A DNA stretch of 33,103 nucleotides from the NCBI RefSeq assembly GCF_004010195.1, contig NC_057719.1, positions 41,543,774 to 41,576,876 on the forward strand, written 5' to 3'. The position numbers were made by a program, and so were the translations under genes. The stretch is from Chiloscyllium plagiosum. Its lineage: Eukaryota. Shown in pieces: positions 551 through 33,103 of the stretch (position 1 is the stretch's first letter; the number at the start of each line of letters is the position of its first letter). The notes beneath the pieces are model-generated. The model ran no database searches, was not told the DNA's origin, and saw only the letters and a list, made by a program, of their open reading frames with translations.

Positions 551-1934
551 CAGTATTCTGCACCCAGACTGAACTGGAGCAGTTCATCAACTTTGCTCAC
601 AACTTCCACCCTGCCCTCAAATTCACTCGGTCCATCATGGACATATCCCTCCACTTCCTTGACATTTCCAGACGGACATTGACTATAAACCTACAGACTC
701 TCACAACTACCTGGACTACATCTTCTCCTACCCAGTATCCTGCAAGTGCTCCGTCCTGTTCTCCTAATTCCTCTGCCCTCGCCACATCTGCTCGGACATG
801 GAGACATTCCATTCCGAAGTATCCCAGATGTCCATATATTTTGAACAATGTGATTTCGTCCCTCTGTCATCCAGACAGCACACCACCACACCACCTCCAT
901 TCCCATTCCATTGCTCTAAACCTCGCCCACCAACACAATAAAGACACAGTCCCCCTTGTCCTCACCTGCCACCCCACCAGTCTCCGCAAAAATGCATCAT
1001 CCTTATATACTCCCATCAACTCCAACCAGACCCCACCACCAAGAACATCTTCCCCTCCCCACCCCTCTCTGCCTTCCACATCGCCCCAAACACCTGCTAC
1101 CTTTCCCTGCAACTGTAAAAGATGCAAAACCTGCCGGCACACAACTCCCCCTCACCTCCGTCCAGATTCCCAAACAGTCCATCCAGGTGAGACAGAGGTT
1201 CACCTGCCTCTCTTCCAGTCTAGCTTACTGCATCAGGTGCTCCCGATCAGGGAGACCAAACGTAAAGCGAGGGAATGGATCATTGAGCATCTCAGCTAGG
1301 CCTGCAGGGGCCGTCCGGACCTCCCAGTCACTGGCCACTTTAGTTTCCCTTCCTGCTCCCTTTCCAACATGACTTTCCTTGGCCTCCGCCATTGCCACAA
1401 AAAACCACATTGCAAACTGGAGGAACAATACCTCACCTTCAAGGTAAAACCGAGGACTACAGATGCTGGAAACCCGAGTCTGGATGAGAGTAGTGCTGGG
1501 AAAGGGCTTTTGGCTGAAATGTCGATTTTCCTGCTCCTTGGATGCTGCCTAACCTGCTGTGCTTTTCTAGCACCATGCTAATCCAAACACCTCATCTTCA
1601 GCCTGGGCAGCCTACAGCCCAGAAGACTCAACATTGAGTTCTCCAATTTCAAATAACCTCCCTTCCCATCCCTGACTCCTTTCCCAACCCCTCCCCATCC
1701 CTTCCAAGCCTCCCTGCCACCAACCAGATTCATTCTTCCCATTGACCAACCAGGTCGTACCCTCTACCTGTCTCCACTTATCCCCACCTCACCAACCTGC
1801 TCTCCCCATGCAGTCTATCTGCTGCTCCCATTATAACAACCCCCAATCCTGAAGAAGAGTTACCTGAAACATTGGCTTCTCCATCTCCTGATGCTGCCTG
1901 ACTTGTGTTCTTCCAGCCTCCTGCTTATCTATTT
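551..1934 (+). mobile_element. Penelope-like element, 5'-truncated: RT C-terminus, GIY-YIG region and terminal repeat (degraded)
   Basis: Peptides across frames: ELEQFINFAHNFHPALKFT..LHFLDIS, YKPTDSHNYLDY, VPLVLT, FPCNCKRCKTC, RQRFTCLSSSLAYCIRCS, ETKRK..EHL, KLEEQ/HLIFSLGSLQP..LNIEFSNF*. Perfect 14-bp TSD TCTGCTCACCACTG at 537-550 and 1935-1948. Decayed hammerhead CTGAAGA..GAAAC at 1849-1870. Confidence 0.9.
1442..1585. mobile_element. PLE terminal-repeat mini insertion (two arms in opposite orientation) nested in the PLE
   Basis: Interrupts the KLEEQ|HLIF reading frame. 15-bp TSD AATACCTCACCTTCA (1427-1441) / AACACCTCATCTTCA (1586-1600). Similar in sequence to 9930-10063. Confidence 0.8.
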
Positions 1935-2060
1935 TCTGCTCACCACTGGCTGCATACAGCCTCTGTGTTCTACACTAAGAAATAGCAACTCAGGAAATGA
2001 TCCATAGGCACCAACCATGCATGCCCCTCACCAACAGACTTTGCCATCTGATAATAAGAC

Positions 2061-3560
2061 TCAAGATGACAGCAGAGAAGACTCCTGAGCTCAGGGCTCA
2101 TCTGCTCCATCTGCTTTTCTTTCCGTTTCTTTTCTATTTTTGTCTCTTCTTGTTTTTTAAACTTGTTTTCTCTTTTACTTACTTCTTACTTTACTCACTT
2201 AACAGTGAAGAGTTTGAACAATATTGGCAGTAGCGTGTTATCCTCGCGTTGATCCATGGTAGAGAAGAGTGGGTCCAGCGTGGAGGGGAGAGTGCAGGCC
2301 CACCACGGGGGAGGAGAGCACAGGCTCAGCACAGAGGAGAGAGCGCAGGCCCAGCATTGGGGCAGAGCGCAGGCCCAGCACAGGGGGGAGAGCGAGGGGC
2401 TAGCATGGAAGGGAGAGCACAGGCCCAGCATGGAGAAGAGATCAAGGGCCCAGCTTGGAGGAGAGAGAGTGACCCTTCCGCCCGGAAGGGAGACCGAGGG
2501 CCCAGCACGGAGAAGAGAGTGAGGGCCCACTGGAGGAGAGAGTGTGGCCTCTGCATGGAGGGGAGAGAGTGGCCCCAGCACAGAAGAGAGAGTGAGGGCC
2601 CAGATGGATGGGAGCGTGAGGCCCCAGCACAGAGGGGAGAGTGAAGGTCTCACACGGAGAGGAGAGAGCAGTCCCTGCACGGAGGGGAGAGAGTAGCGCC
2701 AGCATGGAGGGGAGAGCGCAGCCTCAGCATGGAGGGGAGAGTGCAGCCCCAGCATGGAGGGAAGAGTGAGAGCCCAGCTTGGAAGGGAGAAAGCAGCCTC
2801 AGCACGGATGGGAGAGAGCGGCCCCAGCACGGCAGGGAGAGCGAGGACCCAGCACGGAGAGGAGAGTAAGGGCCCAGCACAGAGAAGAGAATGAGAGTCC
2901 AGCATAGAGAGGAGAGCATGGGTCCAGCTCGGAGGGGAGAGAGCAGTCACAGCACAGAGGGGAGAGTGCAGCCCCAGCACGGAGGGGAGACAGTGGTCTC
3001 AGCACGGAGGGGAGACAGTGGTTTCAGGGTGGAGTGAAGAGTGAGGGCTCAGTGCAGAGGGGAGAGCAAGGGCCCAGTGTGGAGGGGAGAGAGCAGCCTC
3101 AGTGCGGAGGGGAGAGAGCAGCCTCAGTGTGGAGGGGAGAGCGCGGGCCCTGAGGACATGTCAGTGACATAGGTCCAGCAGCAAAAGATGGCGCATGAGG
3201 ATTGGCGACTTCATCATTGGCTGGGTCTGGTGTTGGCGGTGAAGTAGTGGCAGAAGGGCACCATGGCAACATTAAAAAAGTAGACTGCAGTGAGAGACGC
3301 CAACATTGGTGGGTGTGGCATAGGCAGTGACAGAGTTGAATCAGCCCAGAGATGAAAGATGGCACCTGTAATGTTAGTTGGGTCTGGCATAGACGGCAGT
3401 AAATGAACCTCTCTTGAAACTATATCTTATCATTCTTCTCTTATTCTTAAACTATCAAAATGACACCGTATTGGGATGACAAATGAAAGGTTTCCACTGT
3501 ATTTTATTGTATTTCTCACTGTAAAATACACGTGACAATAAAAATCAATCATTCATTCAA
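2061..3560 (+). mobile_element. Candidate composite non-autonomous retroelement (CAAGATG head, CT-rich tract, VNTR, LINE-like tail)
   Basis: Head is similar to 30523-30610. Tail tacacgtgacaataaaa..(attc)n resembles the Rex1 tail tacatgtgacaacaataaa at 7611-7629. No clear TSD. Confidence 0.5.
2268..3150 (+). repeat. Purine-rich minisatellite, ~22-25 bp unit (CCCAGCACGGAGGGGAGAGAGCAG-like)
   Basis: Directly visible tandem units over ~880 bp. It explains the stack of low-complexity ORFs here. Confidence 0.95.
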
Positions 3561-4419
3561 TTGCTAATCCCTCAGCATCCTAATAGTAGCTAACTGATTC
3601 TCTTGCATACAGCTTTGAAAATAGCTTAAATACTACAGACCAGCTTAGAATTTATTGACTTAGCACCTACTGCATGCTGACAGCATCCATGCCTTGTCCT
3701 GCCATGCCTTGCATGTAAACATGTTTATACAAAGTCTAAATATTATCAGTACTGCCATATTGACATGGTCTTTTGCACAGACACAGTGTCAGGCTGCTTG
3801 TCATGCCTGTTTATAAGGAGCTATCCACAGGGTGAGGGGTAAGGGTGTGTGTGGTGGGCATACTATGGGAGCATGTTGAGTGCCATGAGAGCAAGGGAAC
3901 AGCTTAGAAATCAGGTTGATCTAGTGCGTGAGCTAGATCTGGCTCCCTGAGAGTAAAGTGTCCTTGCTGCAGCATTATACTGATACTTGCCAGAGCTGGC
4001 TGAGCTGCAGCACTGAAGTGCAGAAGCATCCTATAAGAGGATTGGAGATGTACCATGACAGTTCATCTAGACTGGCATCTGGCAGATGCCAATGTCTGTT
4101 GCCACAGGGTATAAGTGGTAGGTGCATGCGGAACGTGTCAAAAACGTTGATCTCTGTTGTCCAACATGAAGATTGTTTGGAACAAGAAGGGTGCTGAACC
4201 TCCAAGAACCCACTTTGGCTTCTCAGATAACTTTTCCTGATGGCTAGTTTGTTTGGCGAGCTTGAAGAGATTGCAACCCATAGTTGTTAACAAGACATTT
4301 AACAAGCAATAGTGATCACCAGTTGGGAACCCGCTGTTACCTAGTGAGAATCTTGCTGTGTCACTTGGGAAAAGTGCCCAAGATACATCGAGGTGGGCAT
4401 TGCCAAACATCTCACCCTA

Positions 4420-4850
4420 TTCAACCACTCATCTCACTATACCCCACATTGGTCAGTTAAGATTCCATCCTTGACTTTACTTTTTTCCCTTTGTCCAATC
4501 TTTCCCACCGACAGTCGGGATTCTTCTGAGGCCCTACGGCATTTGATCAATTTCTAGTTTCTGAGCTGCAGCTGCCTCCTCTTTACCATGGATGTCCAAT
4601 CCCTCTACACCCCCATCCCTCATTAGTTTACTCAGTGGACTTGTTCTTCTTTCTTGAATGGAGAGACTGAACAGTTCCCACTCTCCACCACGCTCCTCCA
4701 CCTGGCTAAACTTGGTCTCACTTTGAACAATTTATCCTTTAATTTGGCTCACTTCCTCCAAATAGAAGGAATAGCCATGGTTACCCACATGAGCCCTAGT
4801 TATGCCTGTCTCTTTGTAGGATTTGGGGAACATTCCTGTTTCTGGGAGCA
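4420..4850 (+). mobile_element. Penelope-like element RT fragment
   Basis: LLFTMDVQSLYTPIPH (from ~4575) and LTLNNLSFN..FLQIEGIAMVTHMSPSYACLFVG match PLE RT motifs. Confidence 0.85.
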
Positions 4851-5971
4851 ACTTTTCTTTGTCCAGATAAAATTCACCAGGGGGAGATATAGCGACAGGA
4901 AATTGGCATCCTGGCTGGCAGCACTTTTATTTAGCACCTACTTGCCTCTGTTGCCAACCTGCCACAGCCTTTCTGTTCTTAAGTGTTAACTTATTATTCC
5001 CCAAGGGCATGAAGCTAAGGCCATTAAATTTATTGATTTTGCCCTGAACAGCAAGGCCTGATTCAGGTAAAGTGATGATCATATTCTCAAAAGAACACTG
5101 TATGTTTTCAATGGATATAATTAAATAAATGATTATTAAATCTGGCAGGTTTCTCTGCAATAAAAAAAATTGATATTACACAGCAATAAATCAGTTCATC
5201 TGAGAAAATGAAGCTATAACTAATATACAGTATAGTGTAAGATAAGTCTGGAAAACATCTGCCATTTGTGAAAATATAACTATATAATGATATAACTATA
5301 GTTATAGTCACTTTGCATGAATTGCTTCAAGGTATGGGTGTGCTAAAATCTCTGACAAAAGATTTATAAAATTACCTTAAAGGATTCTTTGTGTGTGATT
5401 CACCTATTTGGTTTTTGACCATATTGTCATTATATATTTGTTTTTTAAAAATGGACAGCAAAACAGAGTATTGTCTCAGATATTTTAATATCAAAACATA
5501 TACCTTAACTGTTGCCACTTAAGAGACTACTTTTGTCTTTGAAATTCAAGACTCACTGTAACTATTTGTTGATTTTTTTAAAGTTAATCTTCTTTTGCTC
5601 CACCAACTTTGCTGGAAGTGAAGGGGAAATCCTTTTATGGGCTTTATATAAATTAATGTCATTCTTCTGGCAATGCCATAGCAGCAACGTTCAGGGACAT
5701 TTCTGGATCTGCTGGTGAAATAAAGTAACAAATATGAACTTGATAACTGTTTTGGAAATGGCTCTTGCTTCTAAAATATTAACTATTGAAAATATGAATC
5801 ACTGTATTCAGATAAATGAGGAAAATTGAGGAATGTACACTCATGTAAATTCCAGCATTTCAAATATCAGGAAACAAAGGCTGAAAATTCAAGAGATTTG
5901 GTGTAAGAATCAAGAGTTGATACTCTTCCTCAAATATTAACCAATAGCAACAGACAATTTATTTATGAAAC

Positions 5972-6361
5972 TTGCTCTTGAGAAGGTGGTAGTGAGCTGC
6001 CATCTTGAACAGCTGCAGTCTGGATGGTGAGTGGTTTTGCGAGGATATGAAGATAATGGTATTCCATATATTTGTTGCCCTTGTCCTTCTAGATGAAAGT
6101 GGTTATGGATTTAGAAGGTGCTAACTAACAAGCTTTGATAAATGTTTACAAGGCATCTTGCAGATGGTACCACTGCTTCAATGATGGCAAACTCCTCAAC
6201 TATTGTTGGTGCTGCACTCATGCGGGTAAGTCATCAACTCCTAACTTGTGCCTTGTAGATGGTGAACAGGCTCTAGGGAGTCAGGACAGGAGTTACTTGC
6301 TGCACGATTCCTAGCCTTTGACCTTTTCTTTTAGCCACTGTACGTTTGTGGCTGGTCCACA
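5972..6361 (-). mobile_element. CR1/L2-group LINE 3' region; continues at ~7634-7670 beyond the Rex1 insertion
   Basis: Minus strand reads WTSH..TVA..GQRLGI.QQVT.VLTP*SLFTIYKAQVRS. The 3' end is aagatggcagctcactaccaccttctcaag. Confidence 0.7.
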
Positions 6362-7634
6362 ATTATGGAATGCTTTGAGAGGTTAGTCATGGCTCACATA
6401 TGGCAAGCTGACCATATTGCCATGATCCTTTGCAATTCTCCAGTCAGCACAACAGGTCCACAGCAGATGCCATCTCTCTGGCCCTACGCTCATCCCTGGA
6501 ACATTTGGATAACAAGGATATCTACGTCAGGCTCTTTTGTATTGACTCCACTTCCACCTTCATCACCATAATTCCAAACAAATTCATGTCTAAACTCTAA
6601 GTCCTAGGTCTTGACACCCTCCCCCTCTGTAACCAGATCCTCAACTTCCTGACCCATAGATCGCAATCAGTGATCAATAGGTGACAACACCTACTTCACC
6701 ATAATCCTCAACACCAGTGCCTCACAAGGCTGCCTACTCAGCCCCCTACTATATTCGTTGTACACCCTAGACTGTTTGGTCAAATTCTGCCCCAACTTCA
6801 TTTACAATTTTGTTGACAACACCACTGTTGTCAGTCAGATCTCAAACAACGATAAGACAGAATATAGGAAAGAGATTCAGTGCTTATTGGCATAATGTAA
6901 AGACAACAATCTCTCCATTAGCATCAGCAAAATGAAGGAACTAGTCATTGACTTCAGGAAGCGGAGTGAAGAGTATGCCCCTGTCCGTATCAATGGTGGA
7001 GATGGTCAAAAGTGTCAAGTTCCTGAGAGTGATAATCACTAACAATCTGTCTTGGTCCACCCACATTGACTCGATGGTCAAGAAAGCACAATAACATCTC
7101 TACTTCCTCAAAGGTTAAGGAAATTTGGCATGTCCACAAGTACTCTTATAAATTTTCATAGGTTCACCATAGAAAACATCCTACCTGGATACATTACAGT
7201 GTGGTATGGCAGCTGCTCTTCCAAAGACCGAAAGAAACTACAGAGAGTTGTGAATACAGCCCAGTCCATCATGCAAACCAGCCTTCTATCCATTGACTCC
7301 ATCTATATTTTCCACTGACTCAGGAAAGCAACCAACATAATCAAAGGCCCCTCCCATCTAAGTGATATTCTCTTCCACCCTCTTCCATTGCATAAAAGAC
7401 ATAAAAGTTTGAATACACATATGAATAGATTTAAAAGCTTCTTCCCCGCTGTTATCAGACTTTTAAACAGGCCTTTCTAATGTTAATTCTGATCTCTCTC
7501 TCTCGCTCGCTTGCTTGCTCGCTCTCTGCACCTTCTCTGCAGCTATAACACTGCGTTCTGCACACTGTTCTGCTACCTGATGCACTTTATATGGTACAAT
7601 CTGCCCATAGTACATGTGACAACAATAAATAAAT
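6362..7634 (+). mobile_element. Rex1/Babar-type LINE, 5'-truncated RT and 3'UTR (pseudogenised)
   Basis: [89 protein letters not shown]. Tail tacatgtgacaacaataaataaa. Confidence 0.85.
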
Positions 7635-7835
7635 TAGTTCAGTTAATGGTCAATGGTCACCCTAGGATACTGCCTTAATATAGAATTCGCCAGCTTCCAA
7701 ATCTACCCACCCCTGCCTCATCTCAGGTCTAGCCCTCCCTCTCTCCAACACCCCCTTGACCTGACCTCACCTGTCCATCTTCCTTCCCACATATCTGCTT
7801 CCTTCCCACTGACCAATAATAATCACATCCTACCT

Positions 7836-9367
7836 GAGGATTTCACTAAGGAGAGGAACATGATGAATCTTGAGATTAGAGATAGAAGTTTGATTAGTCT
7901 GGATCATGTTGACATAAGTATGGAAGATGCGTTGGGTATGTTAGAGGTTACTAAGGTGGACAAATCCCCAGGACTGGATAGGATCTATCCCAGATTGCTG
8001 AGGGAGGCGAGAGAGGAAATAGCTGCGGCCCTGACTGATATCTTTGTGGCATCTTTAAACACAGGTGAGGTGCCGGAGGACTGGAAGATTGCTCATGTTG
8101 TCCCCCTATACAAGAAGGGTAGCAGGGATATTCCAGGTAACTACAGACCAGTGAGACAGACGTTGGTGGTGGGAAAGTTGTTGGACAGGGTACTGAGGGA
8201 CAGGATCTATTTATATTGAGAAACGAATGGGCTTATCAGTGATAGGCAACATGGTTTTGTGCAGGGGACATCATGCCTTACCAACTTAATAGAGTTCTTT
8301 GAGGAAGTGACCATGTTAATAGATGAAGGAAGTGCTGCTGATGTCATATACTTGGACTTTAATAAGGCATTTGATAAGGTTCCCCATGGTAGACTAATGA
8401 AGAAAGTGAAGTCATATGGTGTGCAGGGTGTTCTAGCTAGGTGGATAAAGAACTGGTTGAGCAACAGGAGACAGAGAGTAGTAGTTGAAGGGTGTTTCTT
8501 GAAATGGAGAAAGGTGACCAGTGNNNNNNNNNNNNNNNNNNNNNNNNNNNNNNNNNNNNNNNNNNNNNNNNNNNNNNNNNNNNNNNNNNNNNNNNNNNNN
8601 NNNNNNNNNNNNNNNNNNNNNNNNNNNNNNNNNNNNNNNNNNNNNNNNNNNNNNNNNNNNNNNNNNNNNNNNNNNNNNNNNNNNNNNNNNNNNNNNNNNN
8701 NNNNNNNNNNNNNNNNNNNNNNNNNNNNNNNNNNNNNNNNNNNNNNNNNNNNNNNNNNNNNNNNNNNNNNNNNNNNNNNNNNNNNNNNNNNNNNNNNNNN
8801 NNNNNNNNNNNNNNNNNNNNNNNNNNNNNNNNNNNNNNNNNNNNNNNNNNNNNNNNNNNNNNNNNNNNNNNNNNNGTGCAGAGAAGGTTTACGAGGATGT
8901 TGCCTGGTATGGAAGGTGCTAGCTATGAAGAGAGGTTGAGTAGGTTAGGCTTATTTTCATTAGAAAAAAGGAGATTAAGGGGGGACCTGATTGAGGTTTA
9001 CAAATTCATGAAGGGTATAGACAGGGTGGATAGAGACAAGCTTTTTCCCAGAGTGAAGGATTCAATAATGAGAGGTCACACTTTCAAGGTGAGAGGTGGA
9101 AGGTTTAAGGGGGATACATGTGGCAAGTACTTCACACAGAGAGTGGTGGGCGTTTGGAATGCATTGCCAGCAGAAGTGATACAGGCAGACATGGTAGATT
9201 CATTTAAGATGCGTCTGGACAGATGCATGAGTAGGTGGGGAGCAGAGGGGATACAGATGCTTAGGAATTGGGTGACAGGTTTAGACAGTAGATTTGGATC
9301 GGCTCAGGCTTGGAGGATCGATGGGCCTGTTCCTGGGCTGTAAATTTTCTTTGTTCTTTGTTCTTTG
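7836..9367 (+). mobile_element. CR1 LINE, 5'-truncated RT region to 3' tail, spanning an assembly gap
   Basis: KSPGLDRIYPRLLRE, VPEDWKIAHVVPLYKKG..PGNYRPV, SCLTNLIEFFEEVT, YLDFNKAFDKVPH, VQRRFTRMLPG, RRLRGDLIEVYK. (TTCTTTG)n tail. Possible TSD TACCT at 7831-7835 and 9368-9372. Confidence 0.95.
8524..8875. other. Assembly gap (352 N)
   Basis: Run of N. Confidence 1.
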
Positions 9368-10730: not shown

Positions 10731-10948
10731 GGTTAAAAATTACACAACACCAGGGTATAATCCAACAGGTTTATTTGGGAGCACTAGCTTTCGGAGTGTC
10801 GCTCCTTCATCAAGTGGTTCACAACCAGCTAATGAAGGAGCAGTGCTCGGAAAGCTACTGCTTCCAAATAAACCTGTTGGACTATAACCTGGTGTTGTGT
10901 GATTTTTAACTTTGTACACCCCAGTCCAACACCAGCATCTATGAATCA
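10731..10948. mobile_element. PLE hairpin insertion of a second family (88-bp inverted arms)
   Basis: Arms 10732-10819 and 10823-10910 with a 3-nt spacer. Each arm has a mutated hammerhead (TTGATGA or CTAATGA..GAAAGCTA). TSD TTAATCTCACCA (10719-10730) / TTAATCTCACTA (10949-10960). Confidence 0.85.
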
Positions 10949-11517: not shown

Positions 11518-11829
11518 TGGGCAACAGTGGTTAGCACTGCTGCCTCACAGTGCCAGAGACCCAGGTTCAATTCCCGCCTCAGGCGACTGACTGAGTGGAG
11601 TTTGCATATTCTCCCCGTGTCTGCATGGGTTTCCTCCGGGTACTCCAGTTTCCTCCCACAGTCCAAAATCGTGCAGGTTAGTTGAATTGGCCATGCTAAA
11701 TTGCCCATAGTGTTAGATGAAGGTGTAAAATGTAGGGGAATGGGTTTGGGTGGGTTGCACTTCCGCGGGTTGGTGTGGACTTGTTGGGCCGAAGGGCCTG
11801 TTTCCACACTGTAAGTAATCAAATCAAAA
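11518..11829 (+). mobile_element. HE1-type V-SINE
   Basis: tRNA head (cagtggttagcactgctgcctcacag..ggttcaattccc), V-domain (gtggagtttgcatattctccccgtgtctgcatgggtttcctccggg), CR1-like tail gggccgaagggcctgtttcc. Confidence 0.92.
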
Positions 11830-14561: not shown

Positions 14562-14760
14562 GGAGGAGAAAGTGAGGACTGCAGATGCTGGAGATCAAAG
14601 TCAAAAAGTGTGGCGCTGGAAAAGCATAGCAGGTCCGGCAGCATCCTTAGGAGCAGGAGAGTTGATGTTTGAAGCATAAGGTCTTCATCATTCCTGACTC
14701 TCCCGCTCCTCGGATACTGCCTGACCAGCTGTGCCTTTCCAGCACCATACTTTTTGACTC
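14562..14760. mobile_element. PLE hairpin insertion (older)
   Basis: Inverted arms (gtcaaaaagtgtggcgctggaaaagc.. / ..gcctttccagcaccatactttttgac). Decayed hammerhead on the minus strand at ~14660-14692. Diverged TSD at 14549-14561 / 14761-14773. Confidence 0.8.
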
Positions 14761-16744
14761 TCACAAACATTCTACCTAGTAGCTGTTTGAGAACTATCTT
14801 TGCCATTGCTATCCCCAACAACTGATGCTTTCCTCCATAGTCCTCACTCTCTCTCTCTCTCTCTGTCACTTTCCTTCTACAATCCTGCGATTTGTAGCCA
14901 GACTACTGGAGAATCTGTAAGTTTACTCATAACAAAGCCAGCTACTGTGTCATTTGTGTTGAAATGTTAAACTTAACAGCTGACTTATGATAAGGCTTGC
15001 CCTCTGTCCTCATTGTGGTCCAAAGGCCATGCAGGATTAGCATCAGGCAGAACCAGCAGCAGGTTACATGTCACTTTTCATTCTTCCATTTGGCAATGAG
15101 TGAAAGAAATGGTTTAAAGCACAGCCATCTTATAACATCAAGCAGAAATAACGCTATCTTATTATGGTTTGTGCATCATAAATCTTTGGGGTGTCTGAAG
15201 ATAGCTGTGTTGGATAAGTAGAACATACATATAAAATAATTGAAGCAGACGACACAAAGGTAATCTTACAGAGAGGTGTCAGAGAAACAAGGTATGGTTA
15301 ACTATATTAAACACTTCTGAGAGGTGCAGTAGTACAAGGAGGATTTATTATACATGATGATGTTCACAGAGCTGTGACTCTAGTCAGAGGCATCTAGGTG
15401 CTATGAGAACGAGGCAAATAAAGAACTATAAGAGGGATGGATATGGGCTTGGGAAAATAACGCATTTGTAAGCCTTATATAGGAATGAAGTATGTTTTTG
15501 AAAATAGGATCACTATCTAGTTTCAATCTTATAGGTAAATGGGGAAAAGGAGAACAATTTTTGATTGGAGATCAGCAAGAGGGAAAATGGAGTAACATTG
15601 AGCCTATTGCAGGCAAAGTCTGTATTTGGAGACAAAAGTTAGCATACAGCCATTAAAACAACACATCTAGCTGAGGATTATGATAATTTTTATAAGGTGT
15701 AAAATCTCTAGGCAGTGTTGTGGTTTATGCAGAGATGTGTCAGAATGACAGCAGCTTCTAAGTATTAACTGGAATTTTATTCACAATGCTTTTAAAATGT
15801 CAGCTCTCTTTCTTACAGTTTTTTGTTTCAATTTTTATTTACGTTTCTCAGGAAGCACACCAAGCCTGACCATGGGCACATAGTAATCAATTAACAGAAA
15901 TGCATAAATCAAATTGCACCTGAGAGGGAAATGTTGTTTGGACAATTTCTGCTCTGCTCCTTCCAGAGAATGTGGAATATTGGGGTTATGGGAGTGTGAT
16001 GAGGGTATAGGCTGCTTAATGGTTATCTCTTGTTCTGGTTAACCGTGACAAAGTCTAATTTCATCCCATTGTGTACTTTCTTCTGTCAAATTTAGCTGAA
16101 TTTGGCGTTCTAATTAAACTGATGCAGACTCCATCATTTCTGTATGTTTCCTTCATGTTTTCACGCATCTTCCCCAGAGTATTGCTTACTGCTGGGCTAG
16201 GTTCCCAGCCTTGTTCCCCAGGTAATGAGAGCCTATTATACATAGTCAGTGGACTATGCTGATAGACACAACACCATAAGGAGTTAGAACTTATAATGTT
16301 AAGGGGAACACTTTTGTTTAATCAGTCTAATTTATCCTATTCCGTTTTTTCAAAAGCAAAATCTTCTGAGAAATAAATGGAAATGAAATGTGAAAAAGTA
16401 AATAAATGAAATTTGAGAGAACATAGTGGCAGTGATGTGTTCCAATCAGTAACTCTCAAATCTGGTTAGAAAACCTGCAGGAATGCTGCAGTTGGGCTCA
16501 GCTTGCTGTCTGATAAACTCCAGAATCAGATTATTCCTGCATCAAAATTCACAAACTCTTTTTAAACAATATCCTCGCATGGCGTGGTCTTGTTATTCGC
16601 TGTATGGAATTCCTAATTCAAATCAGAAGAAAAGTCACTCTGATTTCCCGAAGACAAGTCAAGACCTCCCTCCATGTCGTTATACAATGTCGGCAAAATC
16701 CGTGAAAGCATCATGGATGCTGCCTACAAGAATATAAAATCATA

Positions 16745-16990
16745 CTAATCACAAATTTAAGGTGATTGCAGAACAAAGCAAGAGGAAATATGAGGAAAGA
16801 CTTTATGATGCAACAGATGCTTACGATTCAGATAGCATGGTGAAAATGAACACAGCAGTAGCTTTCAAATTGAGCTAAATATATAGTTGAAAGACGTAAT
16901 TGCAGAGACTGAATGAGTGAGATAAATTGGATTATCTACTAAAGGGCCAGTACAGATTTAATTGGCTGAATAGCTTCCATTGATATTGAA
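16745..16990 (+). mobile_element. Old CR1 3' fragment
   Basis: cacaaatttaaggtgattg..tttatgatgcaacag..ggccagtacagatttaattggctgaatagcttcc resembles other CR1 3' ends in the window. Confidence 0.55.
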
Positions 16991-17484
16991 CAGCATTTCA
17001 GTGTCCTGTCAGCCAGTAAGATTCCCCTGATGATGTTCTCAATGTCCTCCTGCCTCAACCTCATATGTCACTTACAGGCCACTTCCCTTGTGGCCTCAAT
17101 TTTGAAGCTAGTGGGAGATGTTCAGGGGCAGTGGGAAGTCAACTAGATGACCTTATTTGGGCCTAGTGCTGGAAGTTGATGGACTTTGGCTCAATCTACA
17201 AACTTACTTTCTTCTATGTGTGAGCCAAGTCCTGCGTGTTCTTTTAAATGAAGCAATAGGAGAAGATCTTCGGTCTCACACTCTTAATTTATTTTAAGCA
17301 GTAAGTGGATAAAGCATACAGAGCTCTGGATCTAAACCTTTTTATCCCTGACAAACTACAAAGTATGCCAGTTCAAAAAGTAAGACCCCGTTCTGTCCCT
17401 GACCCAGTCTTTTATACAATAAAAAACGTCATACAAACACTGAGGTAGAATTATCTTCTGATTGACTGTTGATCTGACTCCATT

Positions 17485-17730
17485 CTCCGCTTCCTCGCAT
17501 TCCCGGATGTCCGACCCCACGTGACCTTCTTTTGCCCGCAAAACGGAGCATCACGTGACCTCCTCGGCCCGCGAAACGGAGCATCACGTGACCTCCTCGG
17601 CCCGTGAAACAGAGCATCACGTGACCTCCTCGCACTCTTCCGGGGCACGAAACGGAATGTCACGTGACCGCCTCGCACTCTTCCGGGCGCGAAACGGAAT
17701 GTCACGTGACCCCCTTCTGCGCATGTTAAA
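17485..17730. promoter_or_regulatory. CpG-island promoter-like element built from tandem repeats, six CACGTGAC motifs
   Basis: CACGTG at 17518, 17552, 17585, 17618, 17661 and 17703; the last two are perfect GTCACGTGAC. ETS CTTCCGG at 17637 and 17680, E2F-like GCGCGAAA at 17687, NRF1-like TGCGCATG at 17718. Dense CpG in a CpG-depleted window. Confidence 0.7.
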
Positions 17731-18039
17731 CAGCATCATCACAGGCTTCCGAATGCTGAATACATTTACACTCGCAGCCAGCCTTCTAATTTACAAGTAA
17801 GCCATATATTTACAAAGTGCAGGATGATCCCTCAGTGCTCTCTTTCCCCAGTGGGCACACCACTCTGCAGAGTTTCCCACTCAGTAGCTGCTCACTCCAA
17901 CACCAGCTGCTCCAGAAAGGTCCCCATGCTCTGACCCCAGGCTTCACATTTACCTCCACATCCTTCAGCCCCCTGTGCACTTGAATACCAGGACTGAAAA
18001 TCAGGTGGTTGTTTGCAGTCCTTACCTCCTCTTGACTCT

Positions 18040-18256
18040 GGTTTAGTTTGGATGGCTTCAAGGTTGGTTTGTGATGCTGAGTAGCACCAATAGCATGGGC
18101 TAAATTCCCACACCAGCTGAGATCCCCAGGAATGATTCTCCTTCTCAATCTTTCATCTCACCTTAGGCAGCATGACTCTCAGGTTGAACCACCATCTCTC
18201 CCTCTCTAATGAGAGAGCAGCCCTTTGGGCTGGTAAGACTCTGCTGACTTTAGACT
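18040..18256 (+). mobile_element. tRNA-derived SINE (same family as 10265-10490)
   Basis: Shares gctgagat.., ctctctaatga.., ccct(a/t)tgg..ctggtaaga..gacttta with the other copy. Confidence 0.7.
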
Positions 18257-18610: not shown

Positions 18611-20442
18611 CTTCCTAAAGTGTGGTCTAAGTGGGCTTTGTGAAAGGTAAATGCGACTTCTACATTCCTAAACTCTAGCTCTTCTTTAATGAATGATGCA
18701 AATGGACTTGTGATTTCCTAGCTGTTCACTATTTAGAGTTACTCTGTTTTATCCTTTTCAGATCTTAAATGAATGTCTTTGTATTTGCTTACACTTCAGT
18801 TTTTGCCTGTTCGTTATGGTCTGTGCACAATTCCCTTTGTGCTGCTTGCGATGTGACAGCTCTCAGGCTGCTTTTAAGTACAGTTACAGAATAAAGCCAG
18901 TCTGTACAAGCACCATTAAAATGCTCTTAAAACCAAAAGCTGCCAGAATGCAGGCAAACAACTAAACATTTTAAAAACTGCCACACTAAGTCAGGTGCCA
19001 CATGTGCTAGCATTGCTACAGGGTGTTTTAACAATGAAGCTAATGCTATGGGTGGATTCTTACTCAAACTTGTGAAATTAGCCATGAGGTCTGATTCATT
19101 TTATTTGCATATTAATATGAGCCCCATATCCAGCCTCTGTTTTTGCCTCAGACAAAACCAGGCCTTCAGCAAATTATTTTGCCCAGGCACACGAGCAAGA
19201 TCCAGCCTTACAAGATCAGGGCTAATTAGTATTGAACAGCTGGTTACCAGACTGCACTATCTTTTTCCACACCACTTAATTTCCCAATAGACTAATCTCA
19301 AACGAGGTCTCTCTAATTTACAGTTTATGTCACATTGTGTGCTGAATGGTTTCATTTCCCATCCACTTAATTGGGCTCACCCTACCCAAAACTGACTGTC
19401 AATACAGGGCACCAGATGCCTTTTTAACAGATATCAGCACACAAGCTCAGAATAATGTTCACTACAAGACAGGGAGCATTTGTGCCAACCTGTAAAACCT
19501 GGAGAAATTAACAAGCAACTACGGAAGAGATTGCAATGAACCAAACATGCTCACAACTTAAAGAACAACTGACAGACAGCTTTCACACAAAAACTCTATC
19601 CAAGTCAACCAATTGCAACCGAGTCAAGTTAAATTATTTCTGTTTCATTGAATTTCAGGGTGTTTCGTATACTATCATATCACATTTGAAAAGTCCAGTT
19701 TGTGTCAGTTCTAAAACTCTCAATAACTTCACATATTGAGATAACTGGTCACAGTTTTGTACTCACAAGACTATCAATGTGAACTTGAGTTTCTAGTGTA
19801 TGGTTTAAGCATGGAAAATGTTGGAGTTTGATTTTCAATTTGGAGTCAGGTACCCAATGCCCAGACTACTTCCTTGTTGGTCCCACACTGCATCTGTGTC
19901 GCTTAATCTATGTGCTCATTAAATCTAAATACCCTAATTGGTGGTGAGCGAAGCACCCAAGCAGGATGTTGAGAATTATCAGGAAGCAGAAACTGCTTGC
20001 AAAGAAGTTGGCAGCTGTGAGGAGGCCCATCTTACTGAAGAAAGCAGGCAGCACCTCAGAGAGCATCAAGGTGGGCAAATGACCAACTGGAGCATGCAGT
20101 GTCCAATCTGCAGAAAGATCCTACAGGCCCCAGAGGTACACAACATAAAAATATAGCACCCATTATGGAAGCTGGCAGCTGTGCACTAACATACACCAGA
20201 CTGACTAGTTTGGCAATTTGCAGATTGAAAATTGTCTTCACTGAACCATGAGCTAGCTCCTCGAGGAGGTTAACAGTTATTAATTGGAGGCAAGTAGATT
20301 CCTGACTCCCCACAGTCACTGATCTCACATTGAAAACTTAAGCACATCTTGGTGAAATGGGAGATGGCATGGGGCAGGGTGACACTAGGCACATGAGTAG
20401 CGTATACTGCCCACCGAAGCTTCTGGGTCTAGTCAACACCTT

Positions 20443-27090: not shown

Positions 27091-27454
27091 TTAGATTACT
27101 TACAGCATGGAAACAGGCCCTTCGGCCCAACAAGTCCACACTGACCCTCTGCAGATTACTTACAGCATGGAAACAGGCCCTTCATCCCAACAAGTCCACA
27201 CTGACCCTCCGAAGAGCAACCCACCCAGACCCATTCCCCTACACCGAACACTAGGGGCAATTTAGCATGGCCAATTCACTTAACCTGCGCATCTTTGGAC
27301 TGTGGAAGGAAACTGCAGCAACCGGAGAAAACCCATGCTGACACAGGGAGAATGTGCAAACGCCACACAGACATTCGCCCGAGGCAGGTATTCAACCCGG
27401 GTCTCTGGCTCTGTGAGGCAGCAGTGCTAACCACTGTGCCACTGTGCCACCCAC
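27091..27454 (-). mobile_element. HE1-type V-SINE with tandemly duplicated 3' tail
   Basis: Reverse complement of the 11518-11829 family. 60-bp duplication at 27093-27152 / 27153-27212. Possible TSD GGAGTAGT (27083-27090) / GGGGTAGT (27455-27462). Confidence 0.92.
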
Positions 27455-28778
27455 GGGGTAGTGTTTCTGCTGTTTCATCAGTTAGATAGTCCTTCTTACA
27501 CTGGTGGGGTCTTTATCAGAGGTGGGAATCCCACCAAATCTCTACACTGCCCCTCAAGTGATAACTCAAACTAGAGAAATGGTGTAGGAGTCAGACACAT
27601 TAGAGGGCCAGGTGAACATTCTACCCCATTGAAGACAGAAATACCAGTTTGTACAAGAACAGAAGAAATGGGAATTGAAGTAGATCAGATAGTTAATCAA
27701 GCGTGATCCACCATTCAAAAGTCAGCCTAAAAACTAAAACTCTCTCTCTCAGTTATGGAATTTTCGTTAAGCTAAAAATGGTTCAATTTCCAGAATTCTC
27801 GAACAAATCTTGAAGTTGCATTATTTACTATTCTGGATCACAAACAACTTAAAATAAACTAAAGTCCATTAATTTTGAAGCCAGGCCGCAAAACTGCCTT
27901 TAAAATAAATCATCATGGTTACAGAAATGCTTATAACTTCATTATTAAATTTTGGCACACCAAAAACCCCCAGTTATTAACTCAAAAAAGAAATCCAAGC
28001 TTACAACATTTAACATTAAAATTTATACACATAAATTCCACAGTTTATATCACACCTGAGAGACTAAAAATCTACCTATTTCAGCTTTGTAAGTACTTAA
28101 TACAGGAGTATCCAGTATTCTCTAGTGTAGAGAATTCCAAAGATTCATAATCCCTTTGAGTGAAGTCATTTCTTATTTCTCAGTTCGAAACAAGCAGCTT
28201 TTTATCTTGAAGTTGTGCTTCTGTTTTTTAGATTCCCCATCAGTGGAAAAACTCTGTTAGCATTTACCCTGTCAAATCCTCTTAGAATTTTATGTTTCAA
28301 TGAGGTCACCTCTCATTATTCACAAAACCATTCGCAGTATTCCAGCTGTGTTCTGACTGCAGCCTTGTACAGTTTTAGCAAACCTCCCTATTTTTTACAC
28401 CACTCCCTTTCAACTGAAGTCCAACATTCCATTTGCCTTCCTTACTATCCATTGAACATGGATGCAAGTTTTTTTGTGAATCATGAATGAGCCATCCCAA
28501 ACATGTCTATTCTATGGCTTTCTGCAGTCTTTCTCCATTTAAAAAAAAATGAAGTTCCATTATCCTTCCTAACAAAGACCATAACCTCACATTTACCCAC
28601 ATTATATTCCATCTGCCAAATATTTGCCCACATCCTTAACCTGTCTATATTCCCTCTGCAGACTCTGTGTCATCCTCACCACTTGCCTTCTCACCTATTT
28701 TTGTGTAATCCATAAACTTGGCTCTAATTCATTCACTTTCCTCATCAAAGTCATTAATATATGTTGTAAATAATTGTG

Positions 28779-28970
28779 CTGAAACTTTATTGCTGGAACA
28801 GCACAGCAGGTCAGGCAGCATCTAGGGAACAGAAGATTCGACGTTTCGGGCACATGCATGTGCCCGAAACGTCGAATCTTCTGTTCCCTAGATGCTGCCT
28901 GACCTGCTTTGCTGTTCCAGCAATAAAGTTTCAGCTTTGATCTCCAGCGTCTGCAGACCTCACTTTCTCC
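28779..28970. mobile_element. Young PLE hairpin insertion containing a spacerless 158-bp palindrome
   Basis: Arms 28778-28856 and 28857-28935 with one mismatch. Perfect 14-bp TSD TGTAAATAATTGTG at 28765-28778 and 28971-28984. Confidence 0.92.
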
Positions 28971-30739: not shown

Positions 30740-31703
30740 CCAAATTATTTTTACACAGTTTTTATCACTTTTCCATTCCCCAATTTCTCCTGTTTACACT
30801 TCTAACTGTTTCTAAAGTATTTACTTCAGTCACTCTTTTTCTTTTTATATATTTATAAATGCTCTTACAATCTGTTTTTATATTCCTGGCTAGTTTACTG
30901 ACAAATTTTATTTCTCTTTTTATCCCTTTTTATTAACACCTTGGTGACCTTTTATTGACCTTTCTCAGTCTTCTGACTTGCCACTGTCTTTTTGAGACAT
31001 TATAAGTCTTTGCTATTAATTTAATACCGTACTTAACTTTCCCAGTGAGTTTTGGAAGCGTCTATTTGTTGATGTGTTTTATAAAGGAAAGTATCTTTTC
31101 AATATTTTGAATTATTTATTTAAATGCTCCTTGCTTATTTACACCATACCATTTAATCTGTTCATCCAATCAACCTTAAGATGGCTCTTCCGTCCTATCC
31201 AACTAATTGGTCTTATTTAAGTTTAAGATTCTTGTTTGTGATTGGAGTAAAGCACGTTCAAACTTAAAATGGAATTTGAGTGGGAGCAGCGTCGAAGGTA
31301 AAAGCGAACCCGGGAGACTACAGCAAAGGTAAGACAGTTTGTTTTAAAATTGCTTACCTGTAGCGGGCAGCGGTGTGTTTTTTTTACTCTCTCTCCACAG
31401 AAAGAGCGGGAGCAGCAGAGGAAGTGACGGCAAGCAGAGGGGCAGCCGGGAAGGAAAAGTGAGTATATAAGTCAGGCACCCACCCTCCTCCTCTAACCTT
31501 CTTAACTACTCTGCTTTTTCTTTTAAGGTAAGGATTTTTATTTCTTTACCAGGGACTAGTTAAAAATTTACTTTGTTTTTTTTTGTATGTGTGTGTATAC
31601 ATCAAGTCCTTATTTAGGGTAAAAAAAAACGAGAGCAGAGAGGTATCAGAAGGTATTCTAATTCATACTTGTACAAAGTAACTAATTAACTAACTAAGCA
31701 GAG

Positions 31704-32659
31704 ATGGCTGGGCAGGTGATGTGTTGTTGCTGTATGATGTGGGAGCTGGCTGATCCCATTGTGAACGGCAGTGACCACATCTGCAGCAAGTGTTGGTTGC
31801 TGGAAGAACTCCGGATCAGAGTTGATGATCTGGAATCTGAGCTTCAAAAACTGCGGCACATCCGGGAGGGGGAGAGTTACCTGGACACTTTGTTTCAGGA
31901 GGCAGTCACACCTGGGAGATTAAGTAATTCACATCCAGTTAGTGATCAGGGACATCAGAGTGTGACTGTAAGGCAGGTAGGGGGAACCGGAGTTCAGGAG
32001 TGGAGGAGCCTCAGCCCTTAACCTTGTCCAACAGGTACGAGATTCTTGCTCCCTGTACAGATGAGGAAAAGGGTTCTGGACAGGATGAGCCAACTGACCA
32101 AGGCACCATGGTCCAGAAGGCCATTCAAGAGGGGGGAGCTAATAGACAAGTAGTGGTTATAGGGGATTCTATAATTAGGGGGACAGATAGTATCCTATGC
32201 AAGCCGGATCGGGAGTCTCGTATGGTGTGTTGCCTGCCCGGTGCCAGGGTGCGAGACATGTCCGACCGTCTTGAAAGGATATTGGAGCGGGAGGGGGAGG
32301 ATCCAGTTGTTGTGGTCCACGTTGGTACCAACAACATAGGCAAGACTAGGGTGGAGGACCTGTTTGGGCATTATGAAGCACTAGGCAGGAAATTGAAACA
32401 CAGGTCCTCAAGGGTCATAATCTCCGGATTACTGCCCGAGCCAAGTGCCAATTGGCATAGGGACAAGAAAATTAGGCAAGTAAACACGTGGCTAAGGGAT
32501 TGGTGTGGGAAAGAGGGATTCCACTTCATGGGGAATTGGCATCAGTTTTGGAACAGGGGGGATCTGTACCATTGGGACGGTCTCCACCTGAACCGATCAG
32601 GTACCAATATTCTAGCGAAGAGGATAAATAGGATGGTCAGTAGGACTTTAAACTTCTGA
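31704..32659 (+). CDS. CR1 ORF1p: zinc finger, coiled coil and SGNH esterase; one frameshift at ~31946-32021
   Basis: CCCCMM..HICSKC followed by LEELRIRVDDLESELQKL (31704..). In the second frame: LSNRYEIL, VIGDSIIRG, CLPGARVRD, VHVGTNN, DGLHLNRSG (32000..32659). Confidence 0.9.
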
Positions 32660-32694
32660 GTTGGGGGGAAGGGAAAGTCAAAGCGACAGGGAGT

Positions 32695-33103
32695 ATGGAG
32701 GTAAATGGCAAGATAAGCAGCAGGATAGAATGTTTCCAGGCGGATTTAAAATTGAGGCAGACTGAGAATGCAGTAAAAAGCAAGGATAACTTAGGACATA
32801 TGACTTCCAAAATCTCTAATGATAAGGAAGTTAGCATTAAGGCACTTTACCTGAATGCTCGTACCATACATAACAAAGCCGATGAACTAATGACACAGAT
32901 AATAGTGAATGATTATGATGTAGTAGGCATCACAGAGACTTGGTTACAGGGGGGTCAGGACTGGCAGTTAAACCTCCATGGTTTTTCAACTTATCAAAAA
33001 GACAGAGAGGTGGGCAGAGGGGGTGGGGTTGCCTTGTTAGTTAAGAACAAAATTAAATCTATGGTATTGAATGACATAGCGGCGGATGATGTGGAGTCTG
33101 TGT
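32695..33103 (+). CDS. CR1 ORF2p N-terminus (APE endonuclease), partial and absent from the ORF track
   Basis: MEVNGKISS..IKALYLNARTIHNKADEL..YDVVGITETWL..DREVGRGGGVALLVK..VESV with no stop to the window end. The frame is open from 32644. Confidence 0.92.
   Translation, partial: MEVNGKISSRIECFQADLKLRQTENAVKSKDNLGHMTSKISNDKEVSIKALYLNARTIHNKADELMTQIIVNDYDVVGITETWLQGGQDWQLNLHGFSTYQKDREVGRGGGVALLVKNKIKSMVLNDIAADDVESV

Follow-up and report, generated by a model that had tools for sequence, protein, structure and literature searches.

Several LTRs are known in which tandem repeats multiply binding sites for transcription factors, and an LTR enhancer in which one motif is repeated in tandem is a known design (the published sources cited here were available in part). 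The human LTR10A and LTR10F, LTRs of a primate ERV, contain a VNTR with AP1 motifs (PMC466953; Sci Adv 2024 eado1218). The units of this VNTR are 28–30 bp long with an AP1 motif in each, the unit number is variable among copies, and the number of motifs is correlated with the signal of FOSL1 and H3K27ac (PMC466953). The LTRs of PERV-A, -B and -C are 600–800 bp long and carry 37–39-bp repeats in U3, which are built of sub-repeats holding factor-binding sites, and more repeats lead to more transcription (PMC5932395); the factors involved in PERV include NF-Y (PMC10968565). The HERV-K LTR promoter is acted on by MITF-M and USF-1 (PMC10968565). Among cartilaginous fish, the elephant shark has ERVs (CmiERVs) of epsilon-like and snakehead-like type, with LTRs in pairs (PMC4422223). 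Our literature searches brought up no account of an E-box array in a shark LTR; Repbase and Dfam lay outside this search, and the family may be named there. The available parts of PMC5753468, PMC9604959 and PMC5381603 held nothing that classifies the element characterized here.

The window, i.e., the whole stretch of 33,103 nucleotides that was analysed, contains a CpG-rich tandem array with E-boxes which the initial annotation had taken for a host promoter. The array is very probably the U3 enhancer of a solo LTR that belongs to a multi-copy LTR retroelement family. The features of the element are listed in Table 1.

Table 1. Features of the putative solo LTR and its E-box array (window coordinates).
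Feature	Position	Strand	Remarks
Solo LTR (very probable), 638 bp	17177..17814	-	TG start and CA end on either strand; reads 17814 to 17177
Target-site duplication AAGT, left copy	17173..17176		From window sequence and empty-site contig
Target-site duplication AAGT, right copy	17815..17818		From window sequence and empty-site contig
VNTR, putative U3	17485..17730	-	Three ~33-bp units, two 42–43-bp units and a partial sixth; six E-boxes
Two ETS-type CCGGAAG motifs, long units	17637-17643, 17680-17686	-	CTTCCGG at 17637 and 17680
Two exact E2F-like motifs (CGCGAAA)	17570-17576, 17687-17694	-	Variants in other units
Single NRF1-like TGCGCATG	17718..17725		Found once only
CCAAT-box position	17459..17465	-	CCAAT-like; 49 nt upstream of TATA box
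TATA box TATAAAA	17410..17416	-	~100 nt downstream of last E-box
Poly(A) signal AATAAA, putative R region	17288..17293	-	123 nt downstream of TATA box
Putative end of R and U5	17177..17287	-	Within the stretch that the largest number of copies share; R/U5 borders predicted

Six copies of CACGTGAC, each with the E-box CACGTG, were found to start at 17518, 17552, 17585, 17618, 17661 and 17703, with exactly the spacing reported initially (34, 33, 33, 43, and 42 bp), and TRF resolved the array into a 33-bp repeat of 3.5 copies and a 42-bp repeat of 2.3 copies. All eight matches to GGTCACGTGA (≤1 mismatch, both strands) were located inside the array, compared to 0.94 ± 0.94 matches in shuffled sequences, of which none out of 100 reached eight; these eight matches are copies of one unit and hence not independent events. 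The CLEAR-element 10-mer GTCACGTGAC showed an exact match at two of the six E-box sites (17659 and 17701), one mismatch at three and two mismatches at one. A CLEAR-type site in every unit, as the initial annotation had it, is therefore seen for the six CACGTG cores, but for the full 10-mer at two sites only. The CTTCCGG described as a gain of the longer units was present in both of them, whereas the E2F-like motif was exact at two places and not in every unit, and the NRF1-like site was single. The ETS-, E2F- and NRF1-type labels are our assumption or were taken over from the initial annotation.

CpG islands are defined by a length of >200 bp, a GC content of >50% and a CpG o/e of >0.6. With 246 bp, 29 CpG, a GC content of 0.61 and an o/e of 1.34, compared to 0.24 for the whole window, the array lies above all three thresholds, and no other part of the window is as rich in CpG, in agreement with the initial annotation. 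We also agree that it is promoter- or enhancer-type DNA made by tandem duplication. The E-boxes had further been called phased. At 10.5 bp per turn they were found at 0, 3.24, 6.38, 9.52, 13.62, and 17.62 turns, with a half-turn drift reached by the fourth site and sites 4–6 facing roughly away from site 1, and helical phasing is not supported. As a chance baseline, 46% of unit lengths between 25 and 50 bp fall within 2.5 bp of whole turns.

It was the order of motifs on the minus strand, corresponding to U3-R-U5, that prompted the test for an inserted multi-copy element. Counted on this strand of the 638-bp element, the E-boxes are at positions 107–292, the CCAAT-like box at 350, the TATA box at 399 and AATAAA at 522, and enhancer, TATA box and poly(A) signal thus follow each other as in an LTR. 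This layout is of the one-directional LTR type and not that of a bidirectional CpG-island promoter, which would be TATA-less. The CCAAT position in this copy is one base off the form seen in 95–100% of the aligned contig depth. Contigs over 17184–17519 were far more numerous than those over the array and the part above it. With 17184–17519 as the most widely common part, the pattern agrees with U3 being variable and R/U5 conserved, which supports the minus orientation; U3 is also the most heterogeneous LTR region in PERV (PMC5932395). A plus-strand AATAAA at 17418–17423, adjoining the minus-strand TATA box, permits the opposite orientation in principle; no TATA[AT]A match was found on the plus strand. 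This plus-strand AATAAA could terminate plus-strand transcripts entering the element. Besides, a donor-like GTAAGC was seen by eye on the plus strand near the end of U3 (17797–17802), and a polypyrimidine tract with AG, also seen by eye, at 18760–18761, ~960 bp beyond it. A spliced antisense transcript from the LTR, running from the GTAAGC donor to this AG, is conceivable.

Of 24 runs listed, 20 contained the stretch or part of it, and these came from three organisms (A, B, and C). Contigs of one run from each organism were aligned on 16400–18075 at 80% likeness; the organism A run represents a second sample, other than the best-matching one. In total, 596, 707, and 363 contigs were aligned for A, B, and C, respectively. 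One RNA run of organism A (about 6 in 100 covered) was aligned as well and gave 0 reads, and no RNA run was among those listed as containing the stretch; neither result speaks for or against expression. The mean depth of the flanking bins was 0–29 in A, 6–19 in B and 13–56 in C, the higher values lying mostly over what by eye appears to be an old LINE tail. Within 17184–17799 the mean depth of the bins was 378–45,306 in A, 1,186–9,051 in B and 68–36,084 in C. The step from flank to element thus amounted to one to three orders of magnitude in most bins and to ~4-fold in the weakest bin of C, where summed contig depth is not to be equated with copy number. This depth profile, seen in all three contig runs, corresponds to an interspersed multi-copy family with a shared end. 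In addition, 14 organism B contigs run out of the element near 17181 and continue in unrelated sequence (agreement 0.5); these exits resemble differing insertion flanks, which likewise supports a multi-copy family. No second copy of the element was found in the window.

The site itself was found empty in two of the organisms, with one contig per species. In organism C, an 849-nt contig (depth 18.4) passes from 17172 to 17815 and so omits 642 bases; four letters are compatible with both sides. In organism B, a 671-nt contig spans 16720–17161 and 17815–17961 with six letters of its own in between, which is five letters short of a clean empty site. The filled site was recovered from the second sample of organism A, in which one contig (17759–18075) bridges the right junction and another enters the left end by 28 nt (31 required to count as bridging). 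Since the limits of the element were set by the empty site, the TG...CA termini and the short (4 bp) target-site duplication, which is single at the empty site, are an independent check, and the joint chance of finding both at those limits is ~1.5e-5. As no full-length copy was seen, the designation LTR rests on the anatomy together with this insertion signature.

Copies of the family differ in unit number. Fourteen of 15 joints (15 of 21 joints listed) were within the array or leaving it, with skips of 35–226 and steps back of 92 and 140, and some other copies carry units with decayed E-box cores. The bins over the long units (17632–17743) had depths of 198 and 68 in C, 940 and 378 in A, and 3,073 and 1,186 in B; those of C were low despite a higher flank depth than in A or B. 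It may be mainly in A and B, the pair with the closer flank sequences, that the long-unit subfamily has spread. The 21-nt unit pattern gave no matches against viral contigs and three against metagenome contigs; the latter were rejected as relatives and attributed to chance, being GC-rich and CpG-undepleted with only 21–23 matching bases.

Gypsy/Ty3 elements have LTRs with TG...CA ends and make a 4–5-bp duplication. The ends and the 4-bp duplication of the element are compatible with Gypsy/Ty3 and do not separate ERV1 from Gypsy. Duplications of 4 bp for ERV1, 6 bp for ERV2 and 5 bp for ERV3/ERV4 have been reported, although these sizes are not always consistent (PMC4299795); the duplication found here agrees with ERV1, though it is not exclusive to it. 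The parent may have been either an ERV1-like retrovirus or a Gypsy retrotransposon, the two being about equally probable with a slight lean to ERV1. A possible lead to a primer-binding site, a loose end in organism C at 17188 (six contigs, agreement 0.72), where a minus-strand LTR-like end is followed by TGG, is too weak to classify the element.

The reading put forward initially, a single-copy host CpG-island promoter that grew by local tandem duplication, draws on the CpG-island composition and on the USF-, ETS-, E2F- and NRF1-like motifs. A single copy at a conserved position was not what we found: the array lies inside an element that is multi-copy in three species and whose matching site is empty in B and C, which shows that it is not a host promoter, and this element is bounded by TG...CA ends and a 4-bp duplication. 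An internal repeat of a multi-copy transposon was the very finding that the initial annotation had named as speaking against its own proposal, and the depth profile and the empty sites point to exactly that. Unless both the empty-site contigs and the depth profile are assembly artefacts, a host CpG-island promoter is refuted, and we regard it as extremely improbable. An inserted element need not be an LTR. In favour of a small non-autonomous element that is complete in itself (a MITE, a SINE or a tyrosine-recombinase element), no internal region is seen here, and both ends have TG and a 5-base word 11–15 nt in. However, only eight of the first 15 bases match as inverted termini, no inverted repeat links both ends (25 of 27 pairs listed), an A-rich or simple-repeat tail is lacking, and the TATA box and the poly(A) signal, which is internal, stand in LTR order. 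A MITE was rejected for want of terminal inverted repeats, and a small element of any of these kinds is considered quite unlikely compared to a solo LTR.

Among the contigs listed, the flanks differed from the window by 26 of 1,018 letters in B, 35 of 1,023 in C and four of 1,030 in the second sample of A. With the family in all three species and the insertion in A only, the insertion most simply postdates the split of A and B. At an assumed shark rate of 2.2e-10 per site per year (PMC4422223), this corresponds to an age of at most ~58 million years, as an order of magnitude only. Four of the five isolated single-base differences among units 2–6 were CpG to TpG/CpA, a bias with a probability of ~0.003–0.016 if CpG were not hypermutable; unit 1, a 3-bp block and the non-homologous unit tails are excluded from this count, and the differences may date from the parent element rather than from this locus. 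As four of five differences are of the CpG-decay type, LTR DNA in which decay is incomplete is the best reading of the “island”. If CpG has a mutation rate about ten times that of other sites, ~12% CpG decay fits a methylated copy at ~1.3% background divergence. At that level of decay, chance alone would leave all six E-boxes intact with a probability of 0.3–0.5, and they are thus no sign of selection. The 29 CpGs remaining in the array were counted against a relic. Most likely, this copy is nevertheless a methylated, neutrally decaying relic whose CpGs are not yet lost, and it is probably silenced. The same solo LTR could instead have been co-opted in organism A, as an unmethylated, active promoter or enhancer driving a host transcript: 29 CpG and the six E-box cores are all kept, the insertion is present also in the second sample, and human LTR10 copies with motif VNTRs function as enhancers (PMC466953). 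The CpG-decay-type unit differences, at which six intact cores are unremarkable, and the altered CCAAT position in this copy argue against co-option, as does the fact that no host gene was recognised (two of 13 scanned ORFs matched Pfam, both LINE), although small exons would escape such a scan. Co-option is seen as unlikely.

The surrounding vertebrate DNA is rich in repeats, among them LINE fragments, palindromic insertions and SINE-like repeats. Neither the tRNA nor the Rfam scan of the whole window gave a match, and a Pfam scan of 13 of the 51 listed ORFs gave two, both to LINE proteins. The ORFs over or beside the array (17451–17735, 17525–17800, 17810–18157, 16453–16737, and 18931–19290) had no Pfam match, and a coding role of the array was rejected on this ground. 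A CLEAR element is defined by a location close to where a lysosomal or autophagy gene starts; no host gene was recognised in the 13 of 51 ORFs scanned, where small or non-coding exons would escape. Position 16520–16740, which includes part of the ORF at 16453–16737 without a Pfam match, is single-copy, has CpG above its surroundings and is present in organisms B and C. At 31200–33103 the 5′ part of a young-looking LINE was seen, in which the ORF at 31946–32659 matches Pfam Lipase_GDSL_2 (E 1.9e-13), presumably as in the esterase-type ORF1 proteins of CR1/L2-group LINEs, and an endonuclease-like frame seems to begin near the window end. Self-inverted insertions were located at 28778–28935, 10732–10910, and 14599–14759 (arm identities of 98.7, 83.8, and 76.1%, respectively). 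Besides, the window contains a G/A-rich 25-bp minisatellite of ~35 degenerate copies (2275–3150) and a 60-bp tandem duplication (96% match; 27093–27209); the SINE-like repeat whose tail carries the latter recurs at 11524–11820.

For the solo LTR, the following origin is proposed. An integrase would have inserted a full-length element at this site in the lineage of organism A, giving the 4-bp duplication, and recombination between its two LTRs would have left a single solo LTR. Slippage or template switching within the family would have produced the tandem units, which would multiply a bHLH-ZIP site (USF, MiT/TFE or MYC/MAX class), to which the long units would add an ETS site. Where copies are active, the array would be occupied by bHLH-ZIP dimers and ETS factors and the CCAAT box by NF-Y, all acting on the element's own TATA promoter, directed toward lower window coordinates, and more units would result in more transcription. 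A strength that scales with repeat number, as the initial annotation suggested, could hold by analogy with other LTRs (PMC5932395; PMC466953).

In genome scans, a “CpG island” rich in motifs calls for caution, since in a shark genome that evolves slowly it can be an LTR in partial decay. The insertion also provides a presence/absence marker that distinguishes organism A from B and C. A far-reaching proposal, to which we attach only a slim chance, is that the LTR family scattered tunable USF/TFEB-type E-box arrays through these shark genomes, with the ETS-carrying long-unit subfamily mainly in A and B, and that some copies, possibly this one, are enhancers of a nutrient- or lysosome-stress-responsive kind, with unit number setting their strength, i.e., a lineage-specific, retroelement-built extension of CLEAR in cartilaginous fish. 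If the binding of USF or MiT/TFE factors to the copies scaled with unit number, this would amount to a retroelement-made stress-response network in cartilaginous fish.

Compared to the described systems, the shark LTR resembles LTR10A and LTR10F in having an internal VNTR with one factor motif per unit and a copy-variable unit number. It differs from them in carrying an E-box, plus ETS in the long units, instead of AP1, and in units of 33 and 42–43 bp instead of ~30 bp, and the likeness is one of design with no sequence kinship claimed. With PERV it shares the LTR size range and a variable U3 with tandem repeats that hold factor sites, but the CCAAT position of NF-Y is single and outside the array in the shark LTR, and PERV is a mammalian gammaretrovirus whereas the parent here would be ERV1-like or Gypsy. 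The similarity to HERV-K lies in bHLH-ZIP E-box factors on an LTR promoter, predicted in the case of the shark; HERV-K, however, has three MITF sites of the form CACATG (PMC10968565) compared to tandem CACGTG units here, and it is a class II element, ERV2 duplications being generally 6 bp (PMC4299795) and not 4 bp as at this locus. The CmiERVs come from the same host group, and as LTR motif content is not given in the available part of their description (PMC4422223), the likeness extends to the existence of ERVs in cartilaginous fish.
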